From: a virus
Taxonomy: Duplodnaviria; Caudoviricetes
Length of the DNA stretch: 64,000 nucleotides
IMG/VR virus record: IMGVR_UViG_3300042561_000440
Location: 363 to 64,362 of that record
Direction: 5' to 3' (one strand)
Numbering within the stretch: the first letter of the stretch is position 1; every line of letters starts with the position of its first letter. The notes beneath the pieces are model-generated. The model worked only from the letters and a program-made list of their open reading frames with translations. It did no database searches and was not told where the DNA came from. The translations under genes and the position numbers were made by a program. This document shows positions 43,749 to 58,177 of the stretch, piece after piece.

Positions 43749-43758
43749 AGGTGAACTC

Positions 43759-44085: not shown

Positions 44086-44097
44086 CCCGTGGCCCCT

Positions 44098-44148
44098 AAA
44101 TAAAAAGACCGGGGGGCATGGGAGATACGCTTCCCTGCCCCCCGGTCC
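44098..44148 (-). terminator. Intrinsic terminator
   Basis: Long GC stem followed by TTTTTATTT on the minus strand. Confidence 0.75.
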
Positions 44149-44170
44149 TGCCTAGTTGTGGTGCTGACGA

Positions 44171-44536: not shown

Positions 44537-44795
44537 CGATCTTGCTCCTTTCAAACTCTTCCACTGTGTCAGTCGGCTGGACAAGCAGGGCACACACCCT
44601 GCATTCAATGCCCTTGGACTTCAGAAATTCCGCACGGTCAAAAGCCTGTGGTGCAAACGGGAAGTGGGCTGGAAGGTTGGAATACTCATCGTCTTGGTCG
44701 GCCCGCCAGTCCCCGTCCTTCTTGTAAACTACTAACCATCCGTACACCTGTATGTCTGTAGGTTTTACATCTCGTTTGCCCTCTTCGTCAAGCAT
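44529..44795 (-). CDS. Hypothetical protein
   Basis: 88 aa, overlap-coupled. Confidence 0.6.
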   Translation of the reverse strand: MLDEEGKRDVKPTDIQVYGWLVVYKKDGDWRADQDDEYSNLPAHFPFAPQAFDRAEFLKSKGIECRVCALLVQPTDTVEEFERSKIDG

Positions 44796-45057
44796 CTTTT
44801 CTCCTAAATATCATGGTGGGATTAAACACATTGGCCACAACGGATATGTAATGGCACAGGCACAAGGTCTGGCACAGCCAGTCCATGATAGTGCCGTATG
44901 CCCTCTGGTCTCCGAACATAAACACAGAGTAAGACACTGCCATGACTGTCCTCATGCCATACCAAAAGGGGTCTCTTGCCCCATGCTCGTATGTTCCCAG
45001 CATGAACAGTCCGTAACTAAACTGCATAGCAACCATCGTTTCCCAAGAGATTTCCAT
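44788..45057 (-). CDS. Small hydrophobic hypothetical protein
   Basis: 89 aa, fills the gap in the operon. Confidence 0.45.
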   Translation of the reverse strand: MEISWETMVAMQFSYGLFMLGTYEHGARDPFWYGMRTVMAVSYSVFMFGDQRAYGTIMDWLCQTLCLCHYISVVANVFNPTMIFRRKDA

Positions 45058-45066
45058 TGCAGCCCC

Positions 45067-46422
45067 CTAGCAGAGAGGCATGGAATCAATAAGCTCACGC
45101 TCAATGATCCCAGCAAAGGCTTCCTCTGGCACACACTCAGTAGCCTGAACGACAAGGCCATACCCCATCATTTCATCGGGGCTCAGGTCACTACAGATAA
45201 CCTTGTCGTGATTGTCCGGCCAATACACCAGCTTGTCTCTGGCCTTGAGGTCGTTCAGCATCACGGCCCGGTTGGCATCGAAGGCAGTCACTCCCTTCTT
45301 GAGGACCCGGAGGGTGTGGTAGCAACGCTCCAGTGGGGTGCCCCGCTTGAGGCTTCTTTGCGCACTGTCCCCACCCCATCGGTAGGTGCTTCTGAACGGG
45401 CTGTCATCCGCACTGCCAGCCTTCAGCATGTAATTGCCATGGGGTGGAATGATTACTTGAACGCAGCGAATCTGCTCACCGTAAGAATCCATATACCCAG
45501 CCTTGGCCGCACTGACAGTCCAGTACATGACCAACTGGGGGAGATAATAGAACACACCATCCAAGTGGCGATCCCTAGCCAAGCAGTGTGAACCAATGGG
45601 CGAGAACCGTCGGTCAACAAACCGTGAGGTCAGCCGCACCCCGGCAAGGTCATCTTGCTGCTTGAGCATGGGGTACAGTGCAATCTTCAGGTGCTTGTGT
45701 CGCTCCTGAATCTTCAGTGCCTCTCGATGGACACGGGCAGCGGCCATCCTCACCATTGCCGAGTCCCACAACTTCTCACCGTCTGGCCCAAGAGGAGAAA
45801 GCATGGATTCATACCAAGCTTCCTTGCCAACAGAGCCGGGAAGAAAGCCAAGCTGAATATCCAGCGGGGACCGGAAGTAATTGAGCAGGCCTCTCTGGAT
45901 TTCGCCCTCCTCACGGTGGGAGAAGTCAAGCATCTTCCCGTCTTTGTCACGGAGGAATACGCTAGTCGTGTTGGTTGTGCAGACAACACCGCAGCTTCCC
46001 CTGCTGTTGACCTTGAATCCGCCGGCAGTCTTCCACATTTCACTGCCATCGGCATTGTAAAAGGTTGCCGGAACCCACCGCTTGAACGCCACCCCAGCAG
46101 GAAGCGAGATAGGCAGCCACCTCATGACAGTCTTTCTGTAGTCGCTGATCCTGATCTCAAGCTGATACCTTGTGTAGCACTTGCCGTCCTTCTTGCTGCC
46201 TGAGATTTCAGCAATCCGAGTGCCTTTGACGTAATAGTTAAAGCTGTAGATGCTGCCATTGCCCGTGCCGTGCGGGGTGGCACCAACTTTCAGGCCCGGA
46301 ATGAGCTTCTCGCTGCCCCCGTCAAACAGCTTGGCATACTCAACAGGGTCAGACTTGTAGAGCTTCGCCGCCCGGAGCAGCAAGCTGGTGAACGTGTAGA
46401 TTTCCTTGGCTGGTTTAGCCAT
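45067..46422 (-). CDS. Hypothetical protein (451 aa)
   Basis: AAGGAGGAG RBS before ATG 46422. Confidence 0.7.
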   Translation of the reverse strand: MAKPAKEIYTFTSLLLRAAKLYKSDPVEYAKLFDGGSEKLIPGLKVGATPHGTGNGSIYSFNYYVKGTRIAEISGSKKDGKCYTRYQLEIRISDYRKTVMRWLPISLPAGVAFKRWVPATFYNADGSEMWKTAGGFKVNSRGSCGVVCTTNTTSVFLRDKDGKMLDFSHREEGEIQRGLLNYFRSPLDIQLGFLPGSVGKEAWYESMLSPLGPDGEKLWDSAMVRMAAARVHREALKIQERHKHLKIALYPMLKQQDDLAGVRLTSRFVDRRFSPIGSHCLARDRHLDGVFYYLPQLVMYWTVSAAKAGYMDSYGEQIRCVQVIIPPHGNYMLKAGSADDSPFRSTYRWGGDSAQRSLKRGTPLERCYHTLRVLKKGVTAFDANRAVMLNDLKARDKLVYWPDNHDKVICSDLSPDEMMGYGLVVQATECVPEEAFAGIIERELIDSMPLC

Positions 46423-47881
46423 CAAGCTCCTCCTTGTGTGGTGAATCGGGGATACGAACCTTGGTGGCCCACGGTGGAACAAACCCATCCTGAGTGGCAG
46501 CCACAATCAATTGACCCTTGAGCTTCTGGTCTGGCCAAGGGGTGCCGGTGTCCGTCACCAAGACGGTGACATCCGGCTCGTACTTATCCTCTGAGTAGGC
46601 AAGGGGGACTCTCATGTCTGTCCCGCCGCCGCCAACCAACTCAAACTTGTCGTGAACTGCGGACACCATTTTGTCTTGGTGAACCTGAGCATCGCAGGTA
46701 ATCACCGGGACGTTGCCAACGGCCTTGAGGCCCTGCTTGACCACGGTCAAGGCCTTGGCAAGACAGCCAGCGGTCATCGAACCAGAGGTGTCGATGATGA
46801 CCACTGCCTTGGGGTTGTACTTCTTCACCCCCTTGAGGCGAACCTCCACGCTATCCTGCCTACGGTTAGGCCGATGATAGGTGTAGTCCGGGGCACCACG
46901 GTGATTGGCAATAGCCTTGGCCACCGTAGCCCGGAGCTTGTCCCAAGGGTTGGGTTGGGGGTGGAGCTTGGACTTGATGACCCGCTTCAGCCCAGCCGGA
47001 ATAGTTCCCCGGCCATTAACCCAGTCCCGGTCAGCCTCAAGCTGCTCGATCTTGTTCTCCAGTGCCTCAAGCAGGTTGTCTTCCATGAAGGCATCCCACT
47101 TGGGGTCCGGCTCCTCCTCGTACTCACGGGGCAGACCGTCAGCGGCAGAGCCGTCACCAATCAGCTTGAAGTCACCGCCTTTTCCGTTGCCCTCATCTTC
47201 ACCACCAGATGGGCCATCGCCTTCCTGATCTCCCGGCTCTCCCTTGCCGCCATCCTCTTCGCCGCCTTCAGAATCTTGGGGTTCGCCGCGACCATCGCCA
47301 CCCTCCTCTTGCTCTTCGGATTCTTCGGTGCCATCGCCGCCATCCTCATCAGACTCTTCGCCCTCCTCCTCGTCCTCAGACTCACCACGGGGCGGCTCAG
47401 GAGGAATCGGCGGCTTGGGCTCAGGCTCACTGATGATCGCATACAACTGCTCGACCGTCATGTTCCTTTCGATCTTGGGCCACTGCTTCTTGGCATCGGG
47501 GAAGGTGACTCCATCCTTAGGGCAAAGGTGGGCAATGGCTTCCATCATCTCCCACACCACGATGTCCATGGCAATGTTCAGATTCCGCCGATCCTTGGGG
47601 GACGGGCGGTCACCGACAATCGACATAGACCGATGGCAGTGCCGAAGGATTAAGTGCCACGCCTCATGGCAAACAACGTAGCCGCCCTCCTCAAGCGTGA
47701 TGGTCTCGCAAAAGGCAGGGTCGTAATAGAGGCGACCATACTTGTCCACTGCCATGGTCCCGATGCCCGGTCGCTCAACAGGAGTCAAGCTATAGACATA
47801 CGGTGCAATGTAGGGGAAGTGGTCGTAGACTGTCATTCGATATTGGGTAATCAGATCGACAAGGTTTGCTGCTGTGGTCAC
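46415..47881 (-). CDS. DUF2201-type metallopeptidase-VWA protein
   Basis: TMAVD, HEAWH, acidic linker, MIDAS DTSGS, GGGTD, VLVTD. Confidence 0.88.
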   Translation of the reverse strand: MTTAANLVDLITQYRMTVYDHFPYIAPYVYSLTPVERPGIGTMAVDKYGRLYYDPAFCETITLEEGGYVVCHEAWHLILRHCHRSMSIVGDRPSPKDRRNLNIAMDIVVWEMMEAIAHLCPKDGVTFPDAKKQWPKIERNMTVEQLYAIISEPEPKPPIPPEPPRGESEDEEEGEESDEDGGDGTEESEEQEEGGDGRGEPQDSEGGEEDGGKGEPGDQEGDGPSGGEDEGNGKGGDFKLIGDGSAADGLPREYEEEPDPKWDAFMEDNLLEALENKIEQLEADRDWVNGRGTIPAGLKRVIKSKLHPQPNPWDKLRATVAKAIANHRGAPDYTYHRPNRRQDSVEVRLKGVKKYNPKAVVIIDTSGSMTAGCLAKALTVVKQGLKAVGNVPVITCDAQVHQDKMVSAVHDKFELVGGGGTDMRVPLAYSEDKYEPDVTVLVTDTGTPWPDQKLKGQLIVAATQDGFVPPWATKVRIPDSPHKEELDG

Positions 47882-48075
47882 TGCGAATTCTCCAAGTGTT
47901 TGATGGCCTGCTTGCCAGCCCTAAGCATCTGATCCTCGACGGCTTTCCGGTTAAGCGGATTGCCAACATCAACAGGAGTGAAGAGGGCCAAGGCAAATCC
48001 CTTTAGCCGCAGCTTCCGCAAGAACTCACTGTCTTCCGGGGTCATTCCGGCACGGTACTTGTGGCGGTAAAGCAT
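47878..48075 (-). CDS. Small hypothetical protein
   Basis: Between ATPase and VWA genes, GTGA coupling. Confidence 0.55.
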   Translation of the reverse strand: MLYRHKYRAGMTPEDSEFLRKLRLKGFALALFTPVDVGNPLNRKAVEDQMLRAGKQAIKHLENSQ

Positions 48076-48079
48076 TGGT

Positions 48080-49240
48080 TCACCCCGCCTTCTTCTGACG
48101 GAGGTGGGCCGGGATGCGGTCGCCAAACTCACTCAGTGCAGCCAATGACTTGGCACTCAGCTTGGTCTTCTCAGGCCGGGCCTTGACCAAGTGCTTGAGT
48201 TGGGTGAACACAAGGTCTGCCGTGTCCTTGCCCACGTTCTTGCAGAACAGGTCAATGGCAGCGTCCATCCGGCTCTCGGAATACTGGTTCTTGATGGCAG
48301 TCACCACCGAAACCAGCAAGGTCACGGTCAAGTCAGCCCGCTTCTTGTCGTGCTGAAAGGTCTTGCGCCCGGCCAGCACTTCCTCAACATCAACGAGGTC
48401 ACGCTGGTCAATGAACTGCATCAGGTTGCGGCCAGTGGTTGCACCAACCAGAGCCACGGCAATGTCCTTCTTGACAGTGGCCGGGGCATTGACTGACTCA
48501 GCAGCAGCCAGTGCATCTCGGCACCACCGCCAAGTACGGGGAGTGGCATAGGCCATGACATCATCCCCATTCGGCTTCACCAACCGCTCTGCTGAGTTCT
48601 TGTCGGTGTAGCTGGTGATGGCACTACCAAACAGGGCACGGTAACGCTTCCAGTCAGAGGGAACATCGGGGATAAAGGCAGTGCCCCACTCGTCATCTTC
48701 CGAGTTCATGCCCCGCTTCCAAGACTCGTAGTCAGGCTTCCACTCAAAGTGAGCGAAGCGATTGGCCAGAGACTTCTCAAGCGGGCTGGCATTGGGTGCC
48801 CACTCAGGAGGATTGCAGGCTGCCATGAAGATGGTGTCCGGGTGGATCACCAAGTCACCGATCAAAAGCTCGGTGTAAATCTGAAGCAGTGCAGCCCGAA
48901 CAGTTGGCGGGACGGTGGTCATCTCGTCGGTAAAGAGCAATGCCCCGGGCCGAGTCAATCGACCTGCCCACTTGGGCGGTGCCGCCACAAAGTAGGACTT
49001 GTCCTCAGACAGGAACGGGATGCCGCTGAAATCCTCAGGGGCATGGCAGGCACCGATGACATAGCTCAGGTCACGGCCCCAAGCCTTGGCCACCTGCTTG
49101 ATAACAGCAGACTTGCCAACGCCGGGAGGCCCGGAGAACAGGACCGGGGCACCAACCCTTGCGGTGATGAAGCCAGCAACATTGGGGTCAGCCTTCGCCC
49201 AATCCCGGCTGGTGTAGATAGGGTGAACAGTAGAAACCAT
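48080..49240 (-). CDS. MoxR-like AAA+ ATPase
   Basis: GPPGVGKS, EDFSGIP, LFTDE, AACNP, LANRF, TPRTW. Confidence 0.88.
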   Translation of the reverse strand: MVSTVHPIYTSRDWAKADPNVAGFITARVGAPVLFSGPPGVGKSAVIKQVAKAWGRDLSYVIGACHAPEDFSGIPFLSEDKSYFVAAPPKWAGRLTRPGALLFTDEMTTVPPTVRAALLQIYTELLIGDLVIHPDTIFMAACNPPEWAPNASPLEKSLANRFAHFEWKPDYESWKRGMNSEDDEWGTAFIPDVPSDWKRYRALFGSAITSYTDKNSAERLVKPNGDDVMAYATPRTWRWCRDALAAAESVNAPATVKKDIAVALVGATTGRNLMQFIDQRDLVDVEEVLAGRKTFQHDKKRADLTVTLLVSVVTAIKNQYSESRMDAAIDLFCKNVGKDTADLVFTQLKHLVKARPEKTKLSAKSLAALSEFGDRIPAHLRQKKAG

Positions 49241-49286
49241 TTGGATTTCTCCAGAGTGAGGGGGGGTGGTTGCCGGTGGCCTCCAG

Positions 49287-49318
49287 ACCACAGGTCCCGG
49301 CCCAGCTTCGCTGGGCTC
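49287..49318 (-). promoter_or_regulatory. Repeated structured leader element, copy 1
   Basis: Minus strand GAGCCCAGC-GAA-GCTGGGC-CGGGACCTGTGGT, 47 nt before the ATG. Confidence 0.7.
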
Positions 49319-49331
49319 ATGCGTCTAACGA

Positions 49332-49619
49332 TCAGGTGCAGAACCGCATCGCAAGATTTGCCTTGTTCTCGGCAATGTTCTTCTCCATGCACTCAACGCA
49401 CTGGTTCTGCATGGCAATCAGGTTCGTCAGTTGAGACACCAGCTTCTCGGCATCCTCAACAGTGAAGAACTTCTCCATGTTGGCTTCTTTCCAGTGGGCC
49501 TCATGCACAAGGCTGGACAGATACTTGCTGAACGGCAGCGTTCTTTCCTCAAGATGTGCAACCAAGGCACTTGCCGCTTCGTTGAACTCACTCCAATCGG
49601 GCTCTTCTTCTCTCGCCAT
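49332..49619 (-). CDS. Hypothetical protein
   Basis: AAGGA RBS before ATG 49619. Confidence 0.55.
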   Translation of the reverse strand: MAREEEPDWSEFNEAASALVAHLEERTLPFSKYLSSLVHEAHWKEANMEKFFTVEDAEKLVSQLTNLIAMQNQCVECMEKNIAENKANLAMRFCT

Positions 49620-49675
49620 GTGGGTTTTTCCTTGTGAAGTAAGGGGAACTTGAGCAAGCCGCTTCTTGGTGCGCT

Positions 49676-50578
49676 TCATGAACACCATTCCAGTGCAGCA
49701 TGGGCATTGACCGCATCCTTGACCTTCTTGACGATCTCCTTGGACTCAACCAGATCGACACCCAAGATTTCCGAGTAGTCATTCAGCAAGTCCAAGACTT
49801 CCTGACACTCCTTCAGCCGGGTGGCAGTGCCATTAGCCCGCTGCTTCTTGTCATCGCCAAGGTCATGGATCGAGGCCTCGACAGCCTTCATCCGGTCCTT
49901 GGCAATCTGCTTGACTGCCTTCATCACCGCCGCATAAGAAGTCTCAGTGGGGACCACCGGGAACTTCACCATCACCAACTCAGGCCCGCCGCCAATGGCA
50001 TTGATGTGCTTGGCAAACTGATCGAACCGCTCAATCCCCTTCTCAGGCAGGAAGTAAAAGCCGCCCGTCCGTCGCACAAGGATTCCACCCAAGGTGGAGA
50101 TGACCTTGGCAAAGCAGCCGGAAACCATGGCAGTTGGGTAGTAGTTGCAGCGGTGGTCAAACACCTTCTGCAACACCGCCTCCACCTGAGACTTATGGTT
50201 GTCGAGCTGGGGAAGAATGGCTGAGTTGTGCTTGGGGATGCAGACCATCCCGTTGGCATCAATCACAACACTTGCCACAAACACCGGGTCAACATCCTCA
50301 TTGCCGGGATTGATCTGGCGGGCATCAAACCCAGTGACATCTGCCGACAGCCGGAAGGTCTTGATTGGCTTGCCCCGCACCTTGATCTTGGCCTTCTCGA
50401 TGAAGGTCATGAAAGCATCTTGCAGGGCAGCCGCCTTGACGCTGTGCTTGGGAGCCAGCCCATCAAGGTTCACCCCCTTGAGTGCCGCAGCAAGGTCAGC
50501 AATCTTCATCTCCTCGGGCTCCCAGTAAATCATCCCACCGTCCTTGCCCGATCCATCGACGTTGATGATCTTGTTCAT
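49676..50578 (-). CDS. DUF6744/DUF3150-like protein of MoxR-VWA clusters
   Basis: GGMIYW, VRRTGGFYFLP, helical C-terminus; context. Confidence 0.6.
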   Translation of the reverse strand: MNKIINVDGSGKDGGMIYWEPEEMKIADLAAALKGVNLDGLAPKHSVKAAALQDAFMTFIEKAKIKVRGKPIKTFRLSADVTGFDARQINPGNEDVDPVFVASVVIDANGMVCIPKHNSAILPQLDNHKSQVEAVLQKVFDHRCNYYPTAMVSGCFAKVISTLGGILVRRTGGFYFLPEKGIERFDQFAKHINAIGGGPELVMVKFPVVPTETSYAAVMKAVKQIAKDRMKAVEASIHDLGDDKKQRANGTATRLKECQEVLDLLNDYSEILGVDLVESKEIVKKVKDAVNAHAALEWCS

Positions 50579-50668
50579 ACTCACCTCTTTCTTTAGTGCA
50601 GGCACAATGCCTGAGCCCACTTGCCAAGGCTTGCACTTGGCTGCCGCTAAGTAAGTGGGTGCCAGTTA

Positions 50669-51514
50669 CTAGACTGGCGGGAGTTCAAACGTGGCATCGG
50701 GCCGTGCATACAGCTTGCTCAGGCCGCGATGCTCAAGGAATGCAACAATCGCAGTGCAACACCGAACGTAGGTGTCGAACCGTGCCGGAATTCCCTTGTG
50801 AAGGACGTTGGACAACAGGTATTCCCGAAGCCTGATTGCCGCAGTGTCACCGGCAGAAGGGGCAATCCCGCTGGCAAGGATTTCCATGAACTCCTTGAGG
50901 CGGGTCTTGTTTGCTGAGAACGAAGCCGCAGCAATGGCAGCGTAGACCTGAGCAATGGCAATCTTCCGGTGCTGCCGGACGGACATGGCAAAGATCACTG
51001 CCTGTTCGTACTGGGACTGCATCTTGGCAAACTCACCAAGCTCAACCTCCTCATAGGTGGTCGAGTTCCAGCACTCAGCACCAATGGTCTGACGCTCAAG
51101 CTCAACAAGCATTGCCCGGTAGACAGCCAAGGCATTCCGGCTCAGGTGCTTGCCGGTAAAGTCCATGTTGTCCCCGAGAGTCCTCTTGTCGCCCTTGTCC
51201 AAAGAGTCATGGGCCTCAAGTGGCAGGCCGTAAGTCACCATCACTTGGACCGGAACCCCGGCCAAGACAATGGCTGCAAGCCGGTGCTGTCCGTCAGCCA
51301 AGACATCGTTCTCGTAGAAGGCAATGCCTTGATGCGTCACCCTCCACAGTCCCTTGGTGATGGACCGGGCAATCGACTTGACCTTTCGCTCCGACATCTT
51401 TCTGTTGCGTTTGTTGGCAGTTGTCAGCCAAGACTTGGCAACTTGTGGGGTGACGGTCATCACTTCGCTGATGAGACCGCTGGCGGAACTGTTGTTGGTA
51501 ATGCTTTTAATCAT
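50669..51514 (-). CDS. ParB/Srx-like N-terminal domain protein
   Basis: VTPQVAKSWL..NR..., GIAF, LADGQHRLAAI. Confidence 0.75.
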   Translation of the reverse strand: MIKSITNNSSASGLISEVMTVTPQVAKSWLTTANKRNRKMSERKVKSIARSITKGLWRVTHQGIAFYENDVLADGQHRLAAIVLAGVPVQVMVTYGLPLEAHDSLDKGDKRTLGDNMDFTGKHLSRNALAVYRAMLVELERQTIGAECWNSTTYEEVELGEFAKMQSQYEQAVIFAMSVRQHRKIAIAQVYAAIAAASFSANKTRLKEFMEILASGIAPSAGDTAAIRLREYLLSNVLHKGIPARFDTYVRCCTAIVAFLEHRGLSKLYARPDATFELPPV

Positions 51515-51726
51515 CGAGCCCTCCTGTATGCCCTTGATGCCATCCGAATTTGTTCGGGGTCATGGCCTACAACAACCAATGACCCAGCAGTCTTGTGCCC
51601 GTAGCTCATAAACGTCACCTTGCGATGCTCACCGGAGCAGCCAAGGCAAGTAACCGACCGCCCAGTCTCAAGAAGAAACTCAGCCCGCTCGTCAGCAACA
51701 GGCTGGTCACACCTCAAGCACTTCAC
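51511..51726 (-). CDS. TraR/DksA C4 zinc-finger protein
   Basis: CLRCDQPVADERAE...TCLGC. Confidence 0.7.
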   Translation of the reverse strand: MKCLRCDQPVADERAEFLLETGRSVTCLGCSGEHRKVTFMSYGHKTAGSLVVVGHDPEQIRMASRAYRRAR

Positions 51727-52001
51727 TCAGCCCTCCTTTCAGACTCCCTTGCACCAGCCAAGGAAATCTTGTGTGTCGGGTCTTCGCTGTTGATGTCGGC
51801 CCAAATCAGCACCCAAAGCTGACCCTCATACCACTCAACCTTGACGGGCAGGCCGCAGCCATCTTGAGAACCGCAGTCCCCGTAGCCTTCGGCACCAAAC
51901 CAAAGGGTGCCGCCCTCTGCCAGCACCACAGTGAAAGGCACCTTGGTATTGTCGCCTGTGTGAAAGTCCTCCAAGACGCCACTGAACTTGATGTCACTCA
52001 T
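51723..52001 (-). CDS. Hypothetical protein
   Basis: GGAGG RBS; VLIWADINSEDPTHKISL. Confidence 0.65.
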   Translation of the reverse strand: MSDIKFSGVLEDFHTGDNTKVPFTVVLAEGGTLWFGAEGYGDCGSQDGCGLPVKVEWYEGQLWVLIWADINSEDPTHKISLAGARESERRAE

Positions 52002-52290
52002 GGCCCCTCCCTTCTGCCTTGGCAATGGCGTCTGTAAAAACCTCAAACTCCCCGGACAGATGCTCGTCAATGTCGTAGTCCTGCATGACATCCACTGCTT
52101 TCTTGAGAGCGGCCAGCAAGTCATGGGCAGAGGCAGCGCGGCCTGCAACAACATCTTCCCGGCGAACCACATCGGCCTGCTCCATGAGGGCAAGCCTCAT
52201 GTTGTCGGCGTGTTCGGAGAAAGCCATGGCCTGCCGAACCCAGTAGTCCCGGCTTTTCCGAAGTCGATTGATCTCGTCGGCGTCACTCAT
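51994..52290 (-). CDS. Hypothetical protein
   Basis: SAHDLLAALK...AIAKAEG phage-type motif. Confidence 0.65.
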   Translation of the reverse strand: MSDADEINRLRKSRDYWVRQAMAFSEHADNMRLALMEQADVVRREDVVAGRAASAHDLLAALKKAVDVMQDYDIDEHLSGEFEVFTDAIAKAEGRGHE

Positions 52291-52496
52291 TCCTCATCTC
52301 CTTTCTTAGGACCATAGATGTCCTTGAGCCTGTCCCTCTCAGCCGGGGACAGTGCGTCATAGATTTCGTACTGGGTCTCAACCGGCAGCTTGAAGATGTC
52401 CCTCAGGTCAACCATCCCCTTGAAGGGAGAGTCCTTTTCGATGGCCAGCTTGATGACCACCACCCAATCCTCAACCGTCTTGTCCTTGGCTTTCAC
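52287..52496 (-). CDS. Hypothetical protein
   Basis: 69 aa, coupled. Confidence 0.6.
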   Translation of the reverse strand: MKAKDKTVEDWVVVIKLAIEKDSPFKGMVDLRDIFKLPVETQYEIYDALSPAERDRLKDIYGPKKGDEE

Positions 52497-52660
52497 TTCT
52501 TATCTCCCTCTCTTGTGGTGTGGCTCCAAGTCAGTTGCGGGGCCAGCCAGTTGCAGAAGGCTCTGACGTATTGCTCCCGGCTTTCCTCAGGTTGTGGCCC
52601 CCTGAAACCACGCAGCTTCAGGTGGGCAGCAAGCTCCTCGATGGTGCTGACGTTGCTCAT
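52493..52660 (-). CDS. Small hypothetical protein (55 aa, MSNVSTIEEL...)
   Basis: Translated by hand; GGAGG RBS; coupled on both sides. Confidence 0.55.
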   Translation of the reverse strand: MSNVSTIEELAAHLKLRGFRGPQPEESREQYVRAFCNWLAPQLTWSHTTREGDKK

Positions 52661-52797
52661 CACTCATCCTCCTCATAGCTTTCGACAACAACTGACTCGT
52701 CCGGCCTTAGGTCAAGCAGGTCTTGCCAGTCCCAAGAGTCAGGGCTGGGCGTAAACTTCTCATTGAAAATGATGGTCAGGGTGACGGTGGCTTTCAT
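52660..52797 (-). CDS. Small acidic protein (45 aa, MKATVTLTII...)
   Basis: Translated by hand; stop/start overlaps. Confidence 0.55.
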   Translation of the reverse strand: MKATVTLTIIFNEKFTPSPDSWDWQDLLDLRPDESVVVESYEEDE

Positions 52798-52892
52798 TCT
52801 TCACCCTCCCCTTGGACACACTTGGGGCAGGTCGTGACTCCCTCAAGCTGGAGGAAGCAGCCGCAAGAATCGCAGTGGTCAGATTCACTCAT
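52794..52892 (-). CDS. 32-aa Zn-ribbon microprotein
   Basis: MSESDHCDSCG...CPKC; AAGG RBS; ATGA overlap. Confidence 0.5.
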   Translation of the reverse strand: MSESDHCDSCGCFLQLEGVTTCPKCVQGEGEE

Positions 52893-52948
52893 GGCAAACC
52901 TTTCTTACGCAGATTGGACAATCCAGATAGAGGCTTTTGTCGAGCCAC

Positions 52949-52993
52949 AAAAAAACCCGGCCAGCCCCAAGGTTTCCCTCAGGACTGGCCGGG
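52949..52993 (-). terminator. Intrinsic terminator
   Basis: Long stem with GAAA loop, then T7GT. Confidence 0.8.
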
Positions 52994-53216
52994 CCACACA
53001 CTTCACAGGAGTCTCTTAGTCAGGTCAGGAATAGGCCTCGGTCAAAATGAAGCCTTCAACGTCATCCAGCCACGAAATCACCTTGTCAGGAGTAGGAACA
53101 AGGGTTGGTGTCACGACTGCCACAACTTCCTTCATAATCACCCCATAGTAAAAAAGGTTGTGATAAACCAGTAGGAAACGGCACCGCACAGATAACTGAA
53201 GGCAAGGTCTTGCATC

Positions 53217-53639
53217 TCAGTTGCCCTCCCTCTTGACACCCCGCTTTCGGAGCCCAGCAGCCTTGGCAGCAGCCCTCCAAGCTGGATATTCAGGCGACTG
53301 GAAGAAGGCAGCAAGCTCGTCAACTTGGTCCTCGTAGAGGCTGCAAGCGTTCTGGAACTTGGGATTCCGCCAGTGGAACTTGCAGTAGCCCAAGGGGTAG
53401 ACCGTGGTGTCGCAAGGGGCTCCCTCAAGGGCAACCTTCTCGTCAGCAGGGATCGACCGATACTTAGCCTTGGCAGGCTCGGAAGGAATCGGGGCAGCAA
53501 TTACTTGCTCGACAACAGCGTCAGTCACAGCTTCAGCAGCGGCCTCAACAGCGGCTTCCACAGCAGCAGCGGAAGGAGGAGTGTGGTCGCCCATGATTTC
53601 AGCAAACATTTCGTCAAAGTTGTCATTGTCATTGGACAT
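53217..53639 (-). CDS. Hypothetical early protein, paralogue of 55742..56065
   Basis: TTVYPLGY...CSLYEDQVDELAAFFQS. Confidence 0.7.
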   Translation of the reverse strand: MSNDNDNFDEMFAEIMGDHTPPSAAAVEAAVEAAAEAVTDAVVEQVIAAPIPSEPAKAKYRSIPADEKVALEGAPCDTTVYPLGYCKFHWRNPKFQNACSLYEDQVDELAAFFQSPEYPAWRAAAKAAGLRKRGVKREGN

Positions 53640-53684
53640 GGATACTCTCCAGAGGGGAAACGGGGGGAAACGGAACCGGCCCAG

Positions 53685-53724
53685 ACCACAGAACCCGGCC
53701 CAGCGTTAGCTGGGCTCGCGGGGG
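53685..53724 (-). promoter_or_regulatory. Repeated structured leader element, copy 2
   Basis: CCCGCGAGCCCAGC-TAAC-GCTGGGC-CGGGTTCTGTGGT, 46 nt before the ATG. Confidence 0.75.
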
Positions 53725-54029
53725 GAAATTGCTCTTGCCGCCATCGCCACCAAGGCTTCAAGCATGGCATTAAGCTTGGACTCATAGTCAGACTTCTCAC
53801 TTGCCCTAAGCTCGGCAAGCTTGACGCACTCGTCTTGGGTGGCAGCAAGTTGGTTGCTGATGTTGCTGATCGTCTTGAAAAGCTCTGCCTCTCTTTCTCT
53901 TAGGGCTTGATTGCCCCGAATAACCTGCGCCTCAAGCTGGCTAACCCTGTCCCTAAGAAGGTTTTCTTCGGACAGGAGCAGCCTGCTACGCTTGGGCTTT
54001 GGCCCTAGCAAGAAGTCTTTCCTTGCCAT
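53706..54029 (-). CDS. Coiled-coil hypothetical protein
   Basis: AAGGAG RBS; its stop codon lies in the loop of leader copy 2. Confidence 0.6.
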   Translation of the reverse strand: MARKDFLLGPKPKRSRLLLSEENLLRDRVSQLEAQVIRGNQALREREAELFKTISNISNQLAATQDECVKLAELRASEKSDYESKLNAMLEALVAMAARAISPREPS

Positions 54030-54060
54030 GCTTTCTCCTTGGTGGTGGGGAAGTGACAAC

Positions 54061-54104
54061 AAAAAAACCGGGGCAGCCAAGGATTTCTCCCTGACTGCCC
54101 CGGT
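54061..54104 (-). terminator. Intrinsic terminator
   Basis: 16-bp stem, AGAAAT loop, T7GT. Confidence 0.8.
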
Positions 54105-54120
54105 AAGCAATTGCCCCACT

Positions 54121-54276
54121 TCAGATAACGTCCCAACCATTGAGCCGAATGTGCTGGGTCTCAAGCCTCTTGCCAGCCCTGCGGTTAGCCCGGTGGTTAA
54201 GCCTCTTGAAATCCTTCTTGCCGCGCCGCTTGGAGCCCTTGGTGACCATGCTCCAAGCCTTGGTCCAGTCAGTCAT
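54121..54276 (-). CDS. Small very basic protein (51 aa, MTDWTKAWSM...)
   Basis: Translated by hand; K/R-rich. Confidence 0.55.
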   Translation of the reverse strand: MTDWTKAWSMVTKGSKRRGKKDFKRLNHRANRRAGKRLETQHIRLNGWDVI

Positions 54277-54475
54277 TCAGCACCCCTTTCTTGAGTTCGG
54301 CAATATCTTCACTCAGCACGGCAATCCTTCTGGTCTTGGCGTTGCCCCACTTCTCAAGCCTCGCCTTTTCCTCTTCCAAGAACTTGACCCTTGCCAGAAG
54401 GGCCGCAATCTGAACGTCCTTGGCCTGAACCAAAATCTTGAGCCCGTCGTCGGTCAACCTATCCAAAATGGACAT
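54269..54475 (-). CDS. Small coiled-coil protein
   Basis: AAGGAG RBS. Confidence 0.6.
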   Translation of the reverse strand: MSILDRLTDDGLKILVQAKDVQIAALLARVKFLEEEKARLEKWGNAKTRRIAVLSEDIAELKKGVLND

Positions 54476-54486
54476 GGCAAGACTCC

Positions 54487-54849
54487 TTAGGAAAAGAGGG
54501 ACAACTGTTTAGATTGCTGCTGGCAACTACCCCCTTGGGCAGGACGCCAACGATGCCGCTCCTTGACCAACTCCCAGACTTCAAGAAACTCAGGAGTACC
54601 CTTGGCCCATTCCTTGCCGTAGTTGCGTCTCGGCACTCTCAAGAATTGCCGCTCAACCCGGTGGATAAGCTCATTCTCAGCAGCCACCATGTCATTGGTG
54701 GGGAAGGAATCTATTGGTGTGAGAATGTCTGGATTGGGCTTTCGGTAGGCAGGGTTTCTCTTGGATATATCCCGAGCCTTGCCGAAGCAGTAAAGCCTCT
54801 TGTCGGGGTCATACCTGAGGTAGATAAACCCAGCTTGGTAGCCATCCAT
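54487..54849 (-). CDS. GIY-YIG (T5orf172-like) domain protein
   Basis: GFIYL...LYCFGKARDISKR...AENELIH...GKEW. Confidence 0.7.
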   Translation of the reverse strand: MDGYQAGFIYLRYDPDKRLYCFGKARDISKRNPAYRKPNPDILTPIDSFPTNDMVAAENELIHRVERQFLRVPRRNYGKEWAKGTPEFLEVWELVKERHRWRPAQGGSCQQQSKQLSLFS

Positions 54850-54870
54850 GAGTCCCTCCTTTCTGGGAAC

Positions 54871-54915
54871 AAAAAAACCCCCGGAACCCAAGGATTTCTC
54901 CAAGGATTCCGGGGT
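54871..54915 (-). terminator. Intrinsic terminator
   Basis: Long stem, GGAGAAATCC apex, T7GT. Confidence 0.8.
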
Positions 54916-54933
54916 AGTGGTGGCCCTCAAGGC

Positions 54934-55143
54934 TCAGTTGTCCGAAGGCTTGGCGTTCAGGTTGGCCCGGCAAGTCTCAATCACCAGCTTGACCGCCTCA
55001 GTCTGGAGGACAGCCAAGAACTTGACGCCCACTTCCTTGCTGACCTTTCCAGTGTGCATCCCAACAAAGACTTGGGCAGCGGTGGCCATGGCATTGTGAA
55101 TCACGTTGTCCACCATGGCCCTATCTTCAGCGGTCATGTTCAT
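54934..55143 (-). CDS. Small hypothetical protein
   Basis: 69 aa between two terminators. Confidence 0.6.
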   Translation of the reverse strand: MNMTAEDRAMVDNVIHNAMATAAQVFVGMHTGKVSKEVGVKFLAVLQTEAVKLVIETCRANLNAKPSDN

Positions 55144-55184
55144 GATTAAGCCTTCTTTTTGAGGGTGAAACTGACTGACTGAAC

Positions 55185-55224
55185 AAAAAAACCCCGGCCA
55201 ACCCATTGAAGGGCTGACCGGGGT
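55185..55224 (-). terminator. Intrinsic terminator
   Basis: accccggtcagccc/gggttggccggggt stem, then T-run and GT. Confidence 0.8.
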
Positions 55225-55245
55225 AATTGCTTGCCCAGAGGGGGC

Positions 55246-55443
55246 TCACTCAACAACGACGTAGCCGTTCTCCTCCAAGACTTCAGTTGCAGCGAGGTGG
55301 GCGCAAGCAACTTGCTCTTCGGGCTCCATGCCATCGTCATAGAAGGCAAGGATGTTGGCCTCAGGATCGACATCCTTGAGGGGCTGCCCAGCAGTCTTGG
55401 AGACCAACTGAGCGACGTAGGCAACGAATTCATAGCGTTTCAT
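55246..55443 (-). CDS. Small acidic hypothetical protein
   Basis: CAGGAG RBS, MKRYEF start. Confidence 0.65.
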   Translation of the reverse strand: MKRYEFVAYVAQLVSKTAGQPLKDVDPEANILAFYDDGMEPEEQVACAHLAATEVLEENGYVVVE

Positions 55444-55486
55444 GGGAAAGACTCCTGAGAAGGGGTGTGAGAACCGGAACCGCTGA

Positions 55487-55524
55487 ACCACAGAACCCGC
55501 CTCCCCTTTGGGGAGGACACGGGG
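55487..55524 (-). promoter_or_regulatory. Repeated structured leader element, copy 3
   Basis: CCCGTGT-CCTCCCC-AAA-GGGGAGG-CGGGTTCTGTGGT, 44 nt before the ATG. Confidence 0.75.
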
Positions 55525-55545
55525 GGAAGATGCTGATGAACTTCA

Positions 55546-55616
55546 GGAGACCCACCCAAGAATCGAACTTGGCCCCCTGAGCAAGGCTCAAAGGTTCCAT
55601 GTCGAGCTTCAGCCCC
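55546..55616 (-). ncRNA. tRNA-like element (Ala/tmRNA-like ends)
   Basis: Starts GGGGCTG; perfect T-arm CCAAG-TTCGATT-CTTGG; ends CTCC; no CCA and non-canonical anticodon arm. Confidence 0.35.
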
Positions 55617-55678
55617 AAGCCCTCTAGAAAGACTTGAGAACGTCGTTAGCCCTTGTGGGCCACCTGAAATCCACCAAC

Positions 55679-55720
55679 AAAAAAACCCCCAGAGCAACCC
55701 GTTAAGGTCACTCTGGGGGT
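55679..55720 (-). terminator. Intrinsic terminator
   Basis: acccccagag/ctctgggggt stem, then T-run and GT. Confidence 0.8.
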
Positions 55721-55741
55721 TAGTTGGGAAGCCCCTAAGGC

Positions 55742-56065
55742 TTAAGCCTTGGGACGGTCAGAGAGGCTAGCAAGCTCACTCTGGAGGTGGGCAATGAGTT
55801 CCTCCACAGCGTTCTTGTAGAGGCAACCATTGCCTTGGTTGAGTTCCAGCCGGATGTATCCCTTGGGATACCGGGTGGTGGACATGGTGGAAGTCTTGGC
55901 CCTCCACTGAACCTTGCCCTCGACCGGCTGGTAATCCTTGGGCTTGGGCTCAAGGAAGGCCTTGATGGTGGGCTTGAGGTGGTCAAACACCCCAGACTTG
56001 TCCTCCAGCATGGCCTTGAGTTGAGTCTTGGGGAACTTGGTGGGGTCAAAAGCAACGGTGGACAT
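55742..56065 (-). CDS. Hypothetical early protein, paralogue of 53217..53639
   Basis: TTRYPKGY...CLYKNAVEELIAHLQS; AAGGAG RBS. Confidence 0.7.
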   Translation of the reverse strand: MSTVAFDPTKFPKTQLKAMLEDKSGVFDHLKPTIKAFLEPKPKDYQPVEGKVQWRAKTSTMSTTRYPKGYIRLELNQGNGCLYKNAVEELIAHLQSELASLSDRPKA

Positions 56066-56115
56066 GAGAAACTCCTTGGGAAAGTGTGAGAAACAAACCG
56101 AACCGAAACCGACCA

Positions 56116-56153
56116 ACCACAGAACCCGGCCCTCCTTCGGAGGGCTCGCGGGG
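56116..56153 (-). promoter_or_regulatory. Repeated structured leader element, copy 4
   Basis: CCCGCGAGCCCTCC-GAA-GGAGGGC-CGGGTTCTGTGGT, 51 nt before the ATG. Confidence 0.75.
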
Positions 56154-56154
56154 A

Positions 56155-56289
56155 TCAACTGTTGACTTCAACCTGCTCACTCCTCTGCTCCCAGAGTGAG
56201 AGAAACATGTCGAAGATTTCTTCTTGGGTGGCCCCTTGGTTCATCTCCAAGGTTTCTTGGAACCCCAAGAAGGGACAAGACAGGGACAT
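56155..56289 (-). CDS. First early ORF, 44-aa acidic peptide
   Basis: TGGAG RBS before ATG 56289. Confidence 0.5.
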   Translation of the reverse strand: MSLSCPFLGFQETLEMNQGATQEEIFDMFLSLWEQRSEQVEVNS

Positions 56290-56354
56290 GGTGGAATCTC
56301 CAGAGAGGGAGAGAGGAGGAAGTGCCAGTTGCCAAGAGCGGCGACCGGCACCAA

Positions 56355-56384
56355 ACCACAGAGCCCGGCCCAGCTTCGCTGGGC
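56355..56384 (-). promoter_or_regulatory. Repeated structured leader element, copy 5
   Basis: GCCCAGC-GAA-GCTGGGC-CGGGCTCTGTGGT, 66 nt before the ATG. Confidence 0.7.
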
Positions 56385-56761
56385 AGAAACCACACAAGAG
56401 CTAACTACTGTGGTTCTTCTTGTTCAGCAGAACTGTTGGTGTTGGTAATTACCTACAGTTGGTGGTGCTGCAAGGAGGGAAGGTCATAGGTTTATGGCAA
56501 GTTTTCTTATAGAGCCGGGATACCGTTCCCAGCGATATTCCCATTAATAGATCAAGCTGCAAGAGCCGCGCACGCACCCACCCGCCCACCCCCGCGCGTG
56601 AGTCAACTACAGTAACGTCCCCCTCTTGGATTTTTTCCAACTTTTGAAACCGGGGTATCCATCTCTACACCGGGGCATCCCACTAACCAACAAAAGCCCC
56701 TTACCAAAACGCACCACGGCCCACATAACGGTTCACAAGCCCAAGAACCACCGGAGCGGCC

Positions 56762-56902
56762 ATGTCAACGAACAGCCCCGCAAACAACAAGCGGTACTGC
56801 AAGGCGTGGTATCAGAGACTGAAGCAAGAACCTGCTAAGTGGCGGGCCTTTCTGGACCACCGGGCTCGCTACAAGAAGGTTGCGAATCTGGTGGCCAAAT
56901 GA
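56762..56902 (+). CDS. Small basic protein (46 aa, MSTNSPANNK...)
   Basis: GGAG RBS, ATGA coupling to 56899. Confidence 0.5.
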   Translation: MSTNSPANNKRYCKAWYQRLKQEPAKWRAFLDHRARYKKVANLVAK

Positions 56903-57105
56903 GTGGCTCCAAGCACGCTGCCCCACCCACCGGATATTGGGCAGAAGGGTTCACGCCGGAGCAGATTATTGAGGTCTACCGGCAGCACCACGCCGCACAA
57001 TTACCCCCTGAGCCCGTCCCTCTGAACCAGCACCCCTTCATCAAGCTGGTCGAGGGCTTCTTTGGACCCCTTTCTCTAATCAAAGTCGATGGACCAAAAG
57101 TGTAG
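56899..57105 (+). CDS. Hypothetical protein
   Basis: Coupled start. Confidence 0.5.
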   Translation: MSGSKHAAPPTGYWAEGFTPEQIIEVYRQHHAAQLPPEPVPLNQHPFIKLVEGFFGPLSLIKVDGPKV

Positions 57106-57151
57106 TTTTGAGCCGAGCTAGTAGACATCTCTGTATATGGGGACACAACCA

Positions 57152-57484
57152 ATGGCAAGGAAACCGATGACCGACAAAGAGCTAGACATCTTCATGCTTT
57201 CACAGATCGATGCGGAGGCCCTGATTCGGGAACTGCACGACAAGATCACCTTCGTCAAAGAGGTTTTGGCAAAAGTTTCCAAACAGAGAGACGAGCTTGC
57301 TGCGGATGCCGCCATCACCAAAGAGGAGTGGGATGCCATCGCATTTGCCTGCACCACCATCAGGGACGCTATGCACCGGGAGGTTGGCACACCAGATGCA
57401 GACCTTAGGCCACACGCCGATGCCATAGCCACTCTCTTCAAGCTCAGGGAACGTCTCACCAAGGCCCGCCCGGTACATAAATGA
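57152..57484 (+). CDS. Hypothetical helical protein
   Basis: About 110 aa; start could be 57137 or 57152. Confidence 0.6.
   Translation: MARKPMTDKELDIFMLSQIDAEALIRELHDKITFVKEVLAKVSKQRDELAADAAITKEEWDAIAFACTTIRDAMHREVGTPDADLRPHADAIATLFKLRERLTKARPVHK
57473..57482 (+). promoter_or_regulatory. GTACATAAAT motif, candidate late promoter
   Basis: Same motif as 4835/7986/23919, overlapping the end of the upstream ORF. Confidence 0.55.
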
Positions 57485-57487
57485 AGT

Positions 57488-57601
57488 ATGAGCGGCTTCC
57501 TTGCGGGTGCGGTCGGGTTTGTGGCTGCCCTTGTGGGCGGGACGCTGCTTGTCACCTTCGTGGCAATGGTGCTGATCGACCTGTTCGGGCGGCGCAAGTG
57601 A
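57488..57601 (+). CDS. 37-aa single-TM membrane peptide
   Basis: MSGFLAGAVGFVAALVGGTLLVTFVAMVLIDLFGRRK. Confidence 0.5.
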   Translation: MSGFLAGAVGFVAALVGGTLLVTFVAMVLIDLFGRRK

Positions 57602-57677
57602 GCCAGTGTTCGTTTTATTTCTCATAGGCGCGTTCATATTGTTTCACATTATGGACGCTTTGGTAGGAGATTAAGCC

Positions 57678-57977
57678 ATGCCAATGAACAGCAACCCGCC
57701 GATGTCCTCGGTGGACCGGATTCGCAAGATTTCACAGAAGGGCTATGGCCTTGGGGGCTCGATTCTCCCGCCGCCAGCACCTGCTCCTGCACCAGCACCA
57801 AGCCCATACGGCCAGCCGTCTGGACCCATGCACGACAGCATCCAGCAGGACTTCCAGCAGTTCACCGCCCCGCAGCCCCAGCCGATGCTGCCCCCCGACC
57901 GCGACTTGAACACTCCGGTCGCATACAACCCGATTACCGGGGCGGGCTATACGGCTGGGCCAAAGCGGAGAATGTGA
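57678..57977 (+). CDS. Pro-rich hypothetical protein
   Basis: AGGAG RBS. Confidence 0.6.
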   Translation: MPMNSNPPMSSVDRIRKISQKGYGLGGSILPPPAPAPAPAPSPYGQPSGPMHDSIQQDFQQFTAPQPQPMLPPDRDLNTPVAYNPITGAGYTAGPKRRM

Positions 57978-58177
57978 TGGCCAAGCTGGCGAAGGTCGAA
58001 TTTCTGGGCGGCCCGATGGACGGCAAGCTAATCGCGGTGCCCAACTCAGTGGATGTCTACCACTGCTGCCTGAATCCCATGCTTATCCACCTGTATGTCA
58101 GGGATGAGCAATACACAGGCAAGGGATTCAGAACGGTGTTCCGGCATACAGAACTGATGGCTGCCAAGAGGGACTAG
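57974..58177 (+). CDS. Small protein with FLGGPMDG motif
   Basis: GGPxDG motif common in small phage proteins. Confidence 0.6.
   Translation: MMAKLAKVEFLGGPMDGKLIAVPNSVDVYHCCLNPMLIHLYVRDEQYTGKGFRTVFRHTELMAAKRD

Follow-up and report, generated by a model that had tools for sequence, protein, structure and literature searches.

The stretch of DNA considered here (the window, 64,000 nucleotides) covers bases 363-64362 of the complete 64,362-bp viral record IMGVR_UViG_3300042561_000440, which has direct terminal repeats (127 bp, exact), and the subject of this work is a short hairpin with an abutting box that recurs in front of genes of its leftward, early operon. Pfam and PHROG scans place virion and recombination genes on the plus strand. 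The minus-strand block from 57 to 42 kb consists of about 30 mostly small orphan genes, followed by genes for a DUF6744 protein, an AAA_5 ATPase and a DUF2201 metallopeptidase/VWA protein, with a serine recombinase at its end. Ten early proteins were compared with Pfam and with the PHROGs, and in both cases none of the ten matched. Along the minus strand the order is element, open reading frame (ORF) of 44 amino acids (aa), element, 107-aa ORF, terminator T1, element, 65-aa ORF, terminator T2 and, further on, the DUF6744 gene, a small ORF, element and the AAA ATPase gene (coordinates in Table 1).

The minus-strand reading of 49100-56600 contains five copies (A to E) of one design, a perfect 7-bp stem with a short loop and, directly 3' of the stem, the box sequence CGGG-N-Y-CTGTGGT. 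Exact matches to CGGGNYCTGTGGT in the window number five, all on the minus strand of this one operon and each at the lower coordinate given for a copy in Table 1, which are the positions listed in an earlier note on this DNA; 0.02 matches are expected by chance, and five were reached in none of 100 shuffles. In the record as a whole there are again five matches, all of them reverse and none forward. With up to two mismatches there were 19 matches against 16.5 expected, all 14 extra ones having two mismatches, and the window has no further near copies. The 3' CTGTGGT, described as invariant in the earlier note, is indeed present in all five boxes. In every copy 44-66 nt separate the end of the box from the ATG, and the box is followed by CGGTTY repeats, a pyrimidine tract and GGAG, the latter two in all five leaders, again as claimed. 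The same is true of the C-GAA-G loop in three copies (A, B and E). The claim that the stem varies while its pairing is kept applies to three stem types in the window (one shared by A, D and E, one in B and one in C); three of the five stems are identical, and therefore the strong evidence for covariation comes from the relatives (31 copies, 7/7 pairs). The upstream CCCG, which had been made part of the consensus, is restricted to copies B, C and D, where it pairs with the CGGG of the box across a 3-nt bulge; A and E lack it.

Copy A is the first element of the leftward operon, has the 5' flank and stands 66 nt ahead of the ATG at 56289. Copy B starts 11 nt past the stop of the 44-aa ORF, and the ATG at 56065, 51 nt on, opens the 107-aa ORF, which is kept in relatives. 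Copy C lies about 170 nt downstream of T1 and 44 nt ahead of the ATG at 55443. In copy D the 4-nt loop contains the stop codon (53706-53708) of the upstream ORF (53706-54029), and the ATG at 53639 is 46 nt away. Copy E is 47 nt ahead of the ATG (49240) of the AAA_5 ATPase gene. Leader shuffle z-scores from A to E were -3.57, +1.53, +0.64, -0.37 and +0.08; outside the hairpin, the window leaders are of no unusual stability. Taken as a whole, the element is a composite that spans about 45 nt, with a short 5' box (CCCCGCGA-like), the 7-bp hairpin and a 13-nt 3' box. The hairpin sequence is free, its pairing and stable cap are fixed, and the 3' box begins at the stem and in the window ends in CTGTGGT.

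Table 1. Coordinates of the element copies, terminators and further features in the window and, where an L-number is given, in related loci.
Feature	Position	Strand	Description
Copy A	56355-56392	-	Hairpin 56368-56384, GCCCAGC-GAA-GCTGGGC; box 56355-56367, CGGGCTCTGTGGT; second-model score 42.0 bits
Copy B	56116-56153	-	Flank CCCCGCGA; hairpin 56129-56145, GCCCTCC-GAA-GGAGGGC; box 56116-56128; 51.8 bits
Copy C	55487-55524	-	Flank CCCCGTGT; hairpin 55500-55516, CCTCCCC-AAA-GGGGAGG; box 55487-55499; 37.7 bits
Copy D	53685-53723	-	Flank CCCCGCGA; hairpin 53698-53715, GCCCAGC-TAAC-GCTGGGC; box 53685-53697; 36.9 bits
Copy E	49287-49324	-	Hairpin 49300-49316, GCCCAGC-GAA-GCTGGGC; box 49287-49299, CGGGACCTGTGGT; 43.4 bits
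T1	55679-55721	-	Long-stem intrinsic terminator, hairpin and U7 run
T2	55185-55224	-	Hairpin and U7; start codon 41 nt after U-run
T3	54871-54914	-	Hairpin and U7; start codon 21 nt after U-run
T4	54061-54104	-	Hairpin and U7; start codon 31 nt after U-run
T5	52949-52995	-	Hairpin and U7
T6	44102-44148 (called at 44106)	-	17 pairs, U5; ribosome site and ATG about 22 nt past U-run; 5.2 kb downstream of copy E
Terminator at operon end	about 41513-41555, approximate (called at 41518)	-	Terminator scan
Divergent control region	56400-56620	unassigned	AT-richer, upstream of copy A; palindrome and half-sites
Inverted repeat	56386-56418	-	AGAACCACA-N14-TGTGGTTTCT; directly 5' of hairpin A
Three-way module	L139:2690-2822, L141:3567-3699, L149:3624-3756, L159:3422-3554, sister leaders	-	Folding and covariation
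Weak plus-strand sites	L142:12751-12795, L143, L184, L185, L150:8999-9044, L158:9500-9545	+	Second model

The capsid protein has 858 relatives in the protein collection at E<=1e-5, and 430 IMG/VR stretches encode a relative; 80 loci were kept, and the related loci, which are metagenomic contigs, are given L-numbers here. No cultured or known relative was found in the phage collection by megablast of 42000-58000 or tblastn of the capsid protein, a search for close relatives with the AAA ATPase gave no match, and keyword searches of open-access text found no published description of the element or the phage group. A first model, built from the five window copies, gave nine weaker matches, in L178, L181 and L129, and clade-specific versions were then exposed by repeat finding and hairpin scans. 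A second model, made from the alignment of 31 distinct copies of eight genomes, found 40 minus-strand sites in 10 of 89 sources and in the window only the five known copies. Complete relatives carry 7, 8 and 5 copies by this model, on a single strand and within 6.6, 7.4 and 2.7 kb, respectively; two genomes of other clades had no copy. Exact-motif scans of IMG/VR gave 119 stretches with a single match each for GSCGGGTTCTGTGGT and three stretches for CGGGTTCTGTGGT-N3-8-CGGTT, all of them chance matches on inspection and none with the full architecture.

The 31-copy alignment, whose counts include related sequences, argues strongly for a conserved hairpin. The stem is 7 bp throughout (6 bp and a mismatched outer pair in L178 and L181), 96.8% of the stem cells are paired, and the unpaired ones are the seven outer pairs of L178 and L181 only. 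All seven stem pairs have two-sided changes (76 cells), with a covariation score of 0.912 against 0.238 in shuffled alignments (reached in 0 of 500 shuffles) and at most 0.20 with slid partners. Not a single G.U pair or one-sided change occurs in the 217 stem cells. The closing pair is C-G in 29 and the loop G-R-A in 28 of the 31 copies; the loops of the relatives are GAA, GGA or AGA, and with the AAA of the window these triloops account for 30 of the 31, TAAC being found in one.

The register of the box is constant and its sequence varies between clades, being CGGGTTCTGTGGT in the window, GAGGGGCTGTGGT in L129, TTGAGCCTCTGGT in L139 and L141, GTGGCCCTCTGGT in L149, TCGCCCTGTTGGT in L159 and CCGGGCTGTGG or CGGGGCTGTGG in L178 or L181. 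Across clades the 3' box has 13 nt, follows the stem with zero gap, ends in CT(G/C)T(G/T)GG and retains GGT at +11 to +13. The 5' box ahead of the stem is weak, an alternation of C/G/T/A (CGCGA, CGTGT, GTGCGTA etc.). In L178 and L181 the order is element, element, homologue of the 107-aa ORF, terminator, element, homologue of the 65-aa ORF and, later, the DUF6744 homologue, a small ORF and an element that matches copy E in position; this gene order matches that of the window and shows the element positions to be orthologous. The two tandem copies at the operon start of L178 are 95 nt apart. Other clades (L136, L208 and probably L131) have a variant at the same positions, a 4-6-bp hairpin with a TTCG cap, the 5' box CCCGCGTG and the 3' box ATCGGCCAGTTG..GG in L208 or GGCAGGGCAGCGG in L136; the TTCG hairpins of L208 precede homologues of the 107-aa and 140-aa ORFs.

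In the clade of L139, L141, L149 and L159, a covarying three-way RNA module with G.U pairs lies 4 nt past the box. A 6-7-bp outer stem surrounds a 4-bp hairpin and a 5-6-bp hairpin, the latter with an invariant 7-nt loop, GGTTCGA..CC, which is the T-loop pattern of tRNA, and the module has the look of a tRNA minus the anticodon arm. ARAGORN called no tRNA at the module, and the window copies have only the CGGTTY repeats in its place.

Within a genome, the box changes in concert. L178 and L181 are 85.6-98% identical over aligned blocks and share four orthologous elements with identical stems; the box reads GGT-CCGGGCTG in all four copies of L178 and GGT-CGGGGCTG in all four of L181, with no compensating change in the 5' flanks. 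In L159, CCCTGTTGG is found in four of five copies at the place of CCTCTGG in L139, L141 and L149. Four identical independent changes at one site are very unlikely, with a probability in the order of 1e-5 by a rough estimate, the copies not being fully independent. Since the box is clade-specific and changes in concert within a genome, a phage-encoded trans-acting reader of the box seems to be implied. No early protein common to all clades was found (tblastn, E<=1e-4), and a search of the window, L178 and L181 for a trans RNA with complementarity to the box gave only the local inverted repeat beside copy A. An arginine/lysine-rich 51-aa ORF (54121-54276, minus strand; 10 R/K within 20 residues) is a possible RNA-binding peptide; homologues of it were seen in L131 and L208/L214 alone. 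A 71-aa ORF (51511-51726, minus strand) has two CxxC pairs, the look by eye of a TraR/DksA-type zinc finger and homologues in six related loci; it had no Pfam match at E<=0.01. Zinc fingers of this type belong to an RNA polymerase-binding class.

The second conserved trait of the operon is its terminators. T1-T5 have 14-18 pairs and U7, all within 52.9-55.7 kb, and the strong terminators of the window are on the minus strand only, in this operon, with none on the plus strand and two weak minus-strand calls at 23 kb. The earlier note had named plain terminator behaviour as an outcome that would speak against a special function of the element; on the side of sequence, the hairpin is not a plain terminator, since the box CGGGTTCTGTGGT and no T-run follows its stem, unlike the genome's own terminators. 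In the window, L131, L136, L178, L181 and L208, a start codon lies 21-45 nt past the terminator in 16 of 27 cases. The junction has a family-wide form, a stem of 12-19 pairs, U6-7 and a GTTG tail fused to the pyrimidine tract, AAGGAG and start codon. A distance of 21-45 nt is too short for a standard promoter, and thus the genes behind those terminators depend on read-through. A promoter inside the terminator tails, with TTGTTG as -35, was considered and rejected, as no -10-like sequence follows T3 and T4. In three leaders (L139 at 1768 and at 483, and the 140-aa ORF homologue of L208) the order is even element, terminator, ribosome site and ATG. The 32 distinct terminators of these phages have G.U in 75 of 484 pairs compared with 0/217 stem cells of the element, a comparison of long stems with short ones; terminators containing G.U pairs are strand-specific RNA structures, unlike the element hairpin.

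Upstream of copy A, the divergent control region contains the palindrome AACTGTTGGT-N10-ACCTACAGTT at 56431-56460 and related half-sites at 56406 and 56605. It is presumed to be the operator and promoter region of the leftward operon, where the promoter itself would lie; a sigma-70 consensus scan called no site within 56400-56620 and none at any of the five copies. The inverted repeat next to hairpin A may be an additional leader hairpin or an operator. Operator-like repeats are also seen in relatives, as five tandem CAACTGC-N3-GCAGTTG in L178:5260-5420 and in L181, about 100 nt upstream of the first element, and as three CACTAC-N5-6-GTAGTG in L208:5790-5940. The first element is thus found downstream of operator-like repeats in three clades (the window, L178/L181 and L208). 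No repressor gene was identified near these palindromes.

It seems that the element is best regarded as a nut/put-like antitermination site on the nascent RNA, a reading that we hold tentatively and with somewhat less than an even chance of being right. We prefer it because read-through is needed and because, of the leader signals at the start of the operon, only the element is conserved in all clades. The leftward early operon, including the element, would be transcribed from the operator-controlled promoter region upstream of copy A, and the element emerging from the host RNA polymerase would be bound by the phage-encoded reader or, less likely, would bind the polymerase directly. The elongation complex would thereby turn terminator-resistant, as with lambda nut or HK022 put, and then pass the very strong long-stem terminators directly ahead of many operon genes, while at copies B to E the modification would be reloaded or strengthened before the polymerase meets the next terminators. 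That the element acts as RNA is suggested by the sister clades L208 and L136, which have TTCG-capped hairpins at the same positions; among RNA tetraloops, UUCG is the classic stable one. The L139 clade has its covarying module, G.U pairs included, 4 nt past the box, and this points to a leader that acts as RNA. The host polymerase is the likely enzyme, since no phage RNA polymerase was found (see below). Many internal terminators together with an antitermination site at the operon start have been described for pLS20 conAn in passages of PMC10325885 and PMC8955417 and for HK022 put in part of PMC9378689.

The comparison with nut and put, which had been proposed in the earlier note, gains from the terminators without room for a promoter, from the position of the first copy and from the terminator between box and gene in relatives, whereas the structural hallmarks of nut and put are lacking. 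Lambda boxB has a 5-bp stem with a GNRA-like pentaloop, boxA, which matches the rrn boxA of the host, is upstream of boxB, and the phage N protein has an arginine-rich motif. The element is similar to lambda nut and to the boxB-boxA-boxC of rrn operons in being a small hairpin of free stem sequence with a fixed purine-rich cap next to a linear box. It is also like lambda nut a leader site downstream of an operator-controlled early promoter (here only presumed) and upstream of terminators (T1-T6; likewise in L178/L181 and L208), in an operon that ends with a recombinase gene, and its specificity varies between related phages. However, it has a 7-bp stem and a triloop, its main linear box abuts the hairpin on the 3' side, and each operon has five to eight copies rather than one; neither an N homologue nor a shared arginine-rich protein was found. 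The put site, an RNA of about 70 nt, folds into two hairpins and functions without a phage protein, while the element has one conserved hairpin with boxes in many copies, and its concerted box change suggests a phage-encoded reader. HK022 put and pLS20 conAn2 are nevertheless like it in being cis-acting transcript elements at the start of a multi-terminator operon, as far as described in parts of PMC9378689 and PMC10325885. In its presumed mode of action the element would come closest to lambda nut or HK022 put, yet stem and loop, the side of the box and the number of copies set it apart from them.

Several observations weigh against antitermination. The L139 clade has 5-8 elements per genome and only 2-3 terminators in the region, an element number that exceeds the need of a processive system. 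The succession of element, gene(s) and terminator is seen repeatedly, from B to T1, from C to T2, from D to T5 and also in L178 and L181, and a terminator with an element 70-220 nt further on is a promoter-like arrangement. The absence of G.U pairs, the C-G closing and the G-R-A loop agree with the DNA mini-hairpin consensus GCGNAGC described in part of PMC13037366, where RNA versions of this mini-hairpin are reported to be far less stable than DNA. No N-like protein common to all clades was found, and the 51-aa arginine-rich ORF is missing from the L178, L181 and L139 clades. According to passages of PMC10325885, terminator stems have mostly 7-11 bp, and in pLS20 conAn antitermination stems of more than 14 bp are resistant and those of 12 bp intermediate; the stems of 12-19 bp found here are in the range that resists conAn, which in this respect is unlike the present system. 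Finally, Rfam gave no match at E<=1 on either strand of 48000-58000, which agrees with the earlier claim of a new element and at the same time counts against the antitermination reading.

A phage-specific promoter is an unlikely reading and still the most serious rival. A phage polymerase, a sigma-like factor or an activator would read the box, either alone or along with a mini-hairpin that supercoiled DNA extrudes, transcription would start at or just past the invariant GG of the box, and the enzyme would ignore or partly obey host-type terminators. Repeated boxes that evolve in concert ahead of genes are a typical trait of a promoter and polymerase pair, but Pfam and PHROG scans of 60 protein queries revealed neither an RNA polymerase nor a sigma factor. 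Promoters would be in keeping with the recurrence of element, gene(s) and terminator as a unit, with the tandem placement of A and B in the window and of the two L178 copies at the operon start, and with the 5-8 copies on one strand within 3-7 kb of complete relatives, although the genes downstream of T2, T3, T4 and T6 are without an element. The hairpin is a perfect palindrome, free of the G.U pairs of the terminators, and its C-G closing pair and G-R-A loop correspond to the requirements of N4 hairpin extrusion given in parts of PMC4496689 and PMC13037366; in contrast, its loop is part of the non-template strand, the reverse of the situation in N4, and the hairpins of sister clades are TTCG-capped. 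The module of the L139 clade begins exactly 4 nt past the box, like a 5'-terminal structure, and this clade has many copies and few terminators, whereas in the three leaders with a strong terminator directly past the box most transcripts would be aborted. There is also no -35/-10 pair at fixed spacing and no AT-rich stretch upstream of B, D and E.

A promoter of the sigma-70 type is excluded, because a -35/-10 pair is missing and the sequence upstream of B, D and E is GC-rich coding sequence. With CTGTGG taken as the -35, the sequence 17 nt downstream is not conserved and the CACAC motif of C is displaced by 10 nt relative to that of B, and this candidate was rejected. The PeSL cassettes of T4-type phages, as presented in part of PMC2839356, have a similar repeated series of stop codon, stem-loop, box, ribosome site and start codon around small orphan genes in a mosaic early region. 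According to the same passages, they have sigma-70-like -35/-10 sequences, an AT-rich upstream region and a stem-loop of variable position in five subclasses; the element has no -35/-10 pair, its hairpin-box register is fixed to the nucleotide, and the canonical terminators are separate from it.

The hairpin promoters of the N4 virion RNA polymerase (vRNAP) are the nearest precedent in DNA, with a covarying 5-7 bp stem, a 3-nt G-R-A loop, C-G closing, several copies ahead of early genes and conserved bases adjacent to the stem, as reported in sections of PMC4496689 and PMC13037366. For N4, part of PMC4496689 locates the G-R-A loop in the template strand and +1 to the 5' side of the loop. In the element the loop is on the non-template (sense) strand, a strand problem which the earlier note had itself raised and which is borne out by this source, and, relative to the hairpin, the box and the N4 start are on opposite sides. 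N4 geometry would thus transcribe antisense. Moreover, no vRNAP gene was found, the copies are not at the genome end, and sister clades have TTCG loops, and the suggestion of an N4-type promoter is not upheld. No phage RNA polymerase was detected in Pfam/PHROG scans of the large ORFs, PDB sequence searches and Atlas look-ups, many of the ORFs being without annotation, and a crude regular-expression search for known polymerase motifs gave no consistent match. The AlphaFold2 model of the largest ORF (1248 aa, 30546-34292, plus strand) is confident (pLDDT 80.8, pTM 0.81) and all-helical. Compared with the PDB by Foldseek it had no significant match (best E 0.042, TM 0.11; N4 vRNAP E 0.19, TM 0.09), and among its 60 matches in BFVD at E<=0.001 the named ones are polyvalent-protein-domain or internal virion proteins. 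Judged from this model, the 1248-aa protein is probably an ejected virion protein; the 930-aa protein of the adjoining ORF is low-complexity.

An RNA processing or stability site, likewise named in the earlier note, is a rather doubtful explanation. An endoribonuclease of phage or host would read hairpin and box and cut between cistrons, so that the upstream message keeps a protective 3' hairpin, the downstream one gets a defined 5' end and the small genes are held at different levels. Where an upstream stop codon exists, the hairpin begins 10-30 nt past it (in the window 11 nt for B and 15 nt for E, with the stop in the loop for D), and the same spacing is seen in several copies of L139, L149 and L159; copy A, however, has no cistron upstream. 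A uniform hairpin abutting a single-stranded box is the type of target that structure-specific RNases use, and the copy number, the cassette-like spread and the concerted box change would fit a phage-encoded enzyme, but a nuclease candidate was not found among the ten early proteins in Pfam or PHROGs. The tRNA-like module of the L139 clade could, by its resemblance, be a site of the RNase P type. RNase III is not a good candidate, as the stem is too short for it: a T7-type RNase III site has about two helical turns of double-stranded RNA, whereas the element has 7 bp and only copies B, C and D extend this to 11 bp, interrupted by a 3-nt bulge, and this part of the earlier suggestion is therefore unlikely. 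Processing would also leave unexplained how the polymerase passes through the terminators.

An improbable but specific variant of the DNA-based reading is a second, N4-independent DNA mini-hairpin system, in which the C-G-R-A-G hairpin would extrude from supercoiled DNA and together with the clade-specific box make up a site of start or loading, which a phage protein unlike known RNA polymerases and sigma factors would read on the non-template strand. To the case that none of the readings set out here is correct we give a small probability.

A single-strand DNA signal, either a replication priming site like the mini-hairpins of phage G4 or RSF1010 ssiA or a bare hairpin pause site, is very improbable: the mini-hairpin consensus with its known use at priming sites (part of PMC13037366), the one strand shared by all copies near the divergent control region and, for a pause, the hairpin 10-11 nt ahead of an invariant T-G step, which is the usual geometry of hairpin-dependent pausing, stand against an intergenic leader position 44-66 nt ahead of a start codon in every copy, which priming would not need, the limitation of the copies to 3-7 kb of the genome, the lack of a primase in the Pfam/PHROG scans and, for a pause alone, the clade-specific box that changes in concert. 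A reading as integron attC-like sites was rejected, as a few stems of the L139 clade resemble the known core sites, most do not, and the loop has only 3 nt.

Some further observations concern the phages themselves. In late regions, the second model had six further, weak matches (22-25 bits) on the plus strand, each ahead of a gene with a ribosome site, which may be chance matches or a diverged late copy. The major head protein matches PHROG 9953 (E 1e-10), and a portal match was weak and below the Pfam cut-off. The DNA functions on the plus strand are an ERF recombinase, a PD-(D/E)XK nuclease and a helicase, and a tyrosine-integrase-like ORF fell just under the Pfam cut-off. A tail-fibre-like protein (15878-18493, plus strand) has collagen repeats, an immunoglobulin (Ig) domain and an Mtd_N domain, the last of which hints at a target of a diversity-generating retroelement. 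Neither the window nor six relatives contained a tRNA by ARAGORN. Nine related loci are in contigs of metagenome-assembled genomes, with mixed labels (4/9 Planctomycetota). L208 and L214 belong to one such contig of 97.7 kb, binned as Crocinitomicaceae, with two capsid genes 65.6 kb apart; it is probably a concatemer of a phage genome, and its bin label is thus not evidence for the host.

The phage lineage in which the element is found is large and uncultured, as the numbers of capsid relatives and IMG/VR stretches indicate, and the design of its early operon is unusual, with strong long-stem terminators fused to the next ribosome site and a repeated hairpin-box signal, the box of which co-evolves within a genome. 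As an antitermination site, the element would amount to a new nut/put-like code with its own reader and could serve as a compact, programmable switch for read-through. As a promoter, it would represent a hairpin-type system of which just one other is known, and in case the mini-hairpin system is true, it would be a new way to start or license transcription in widespread, uncultured, temperate-like phages. Either way, the element would offer a testable handle on early-gene timing in abundant phages.

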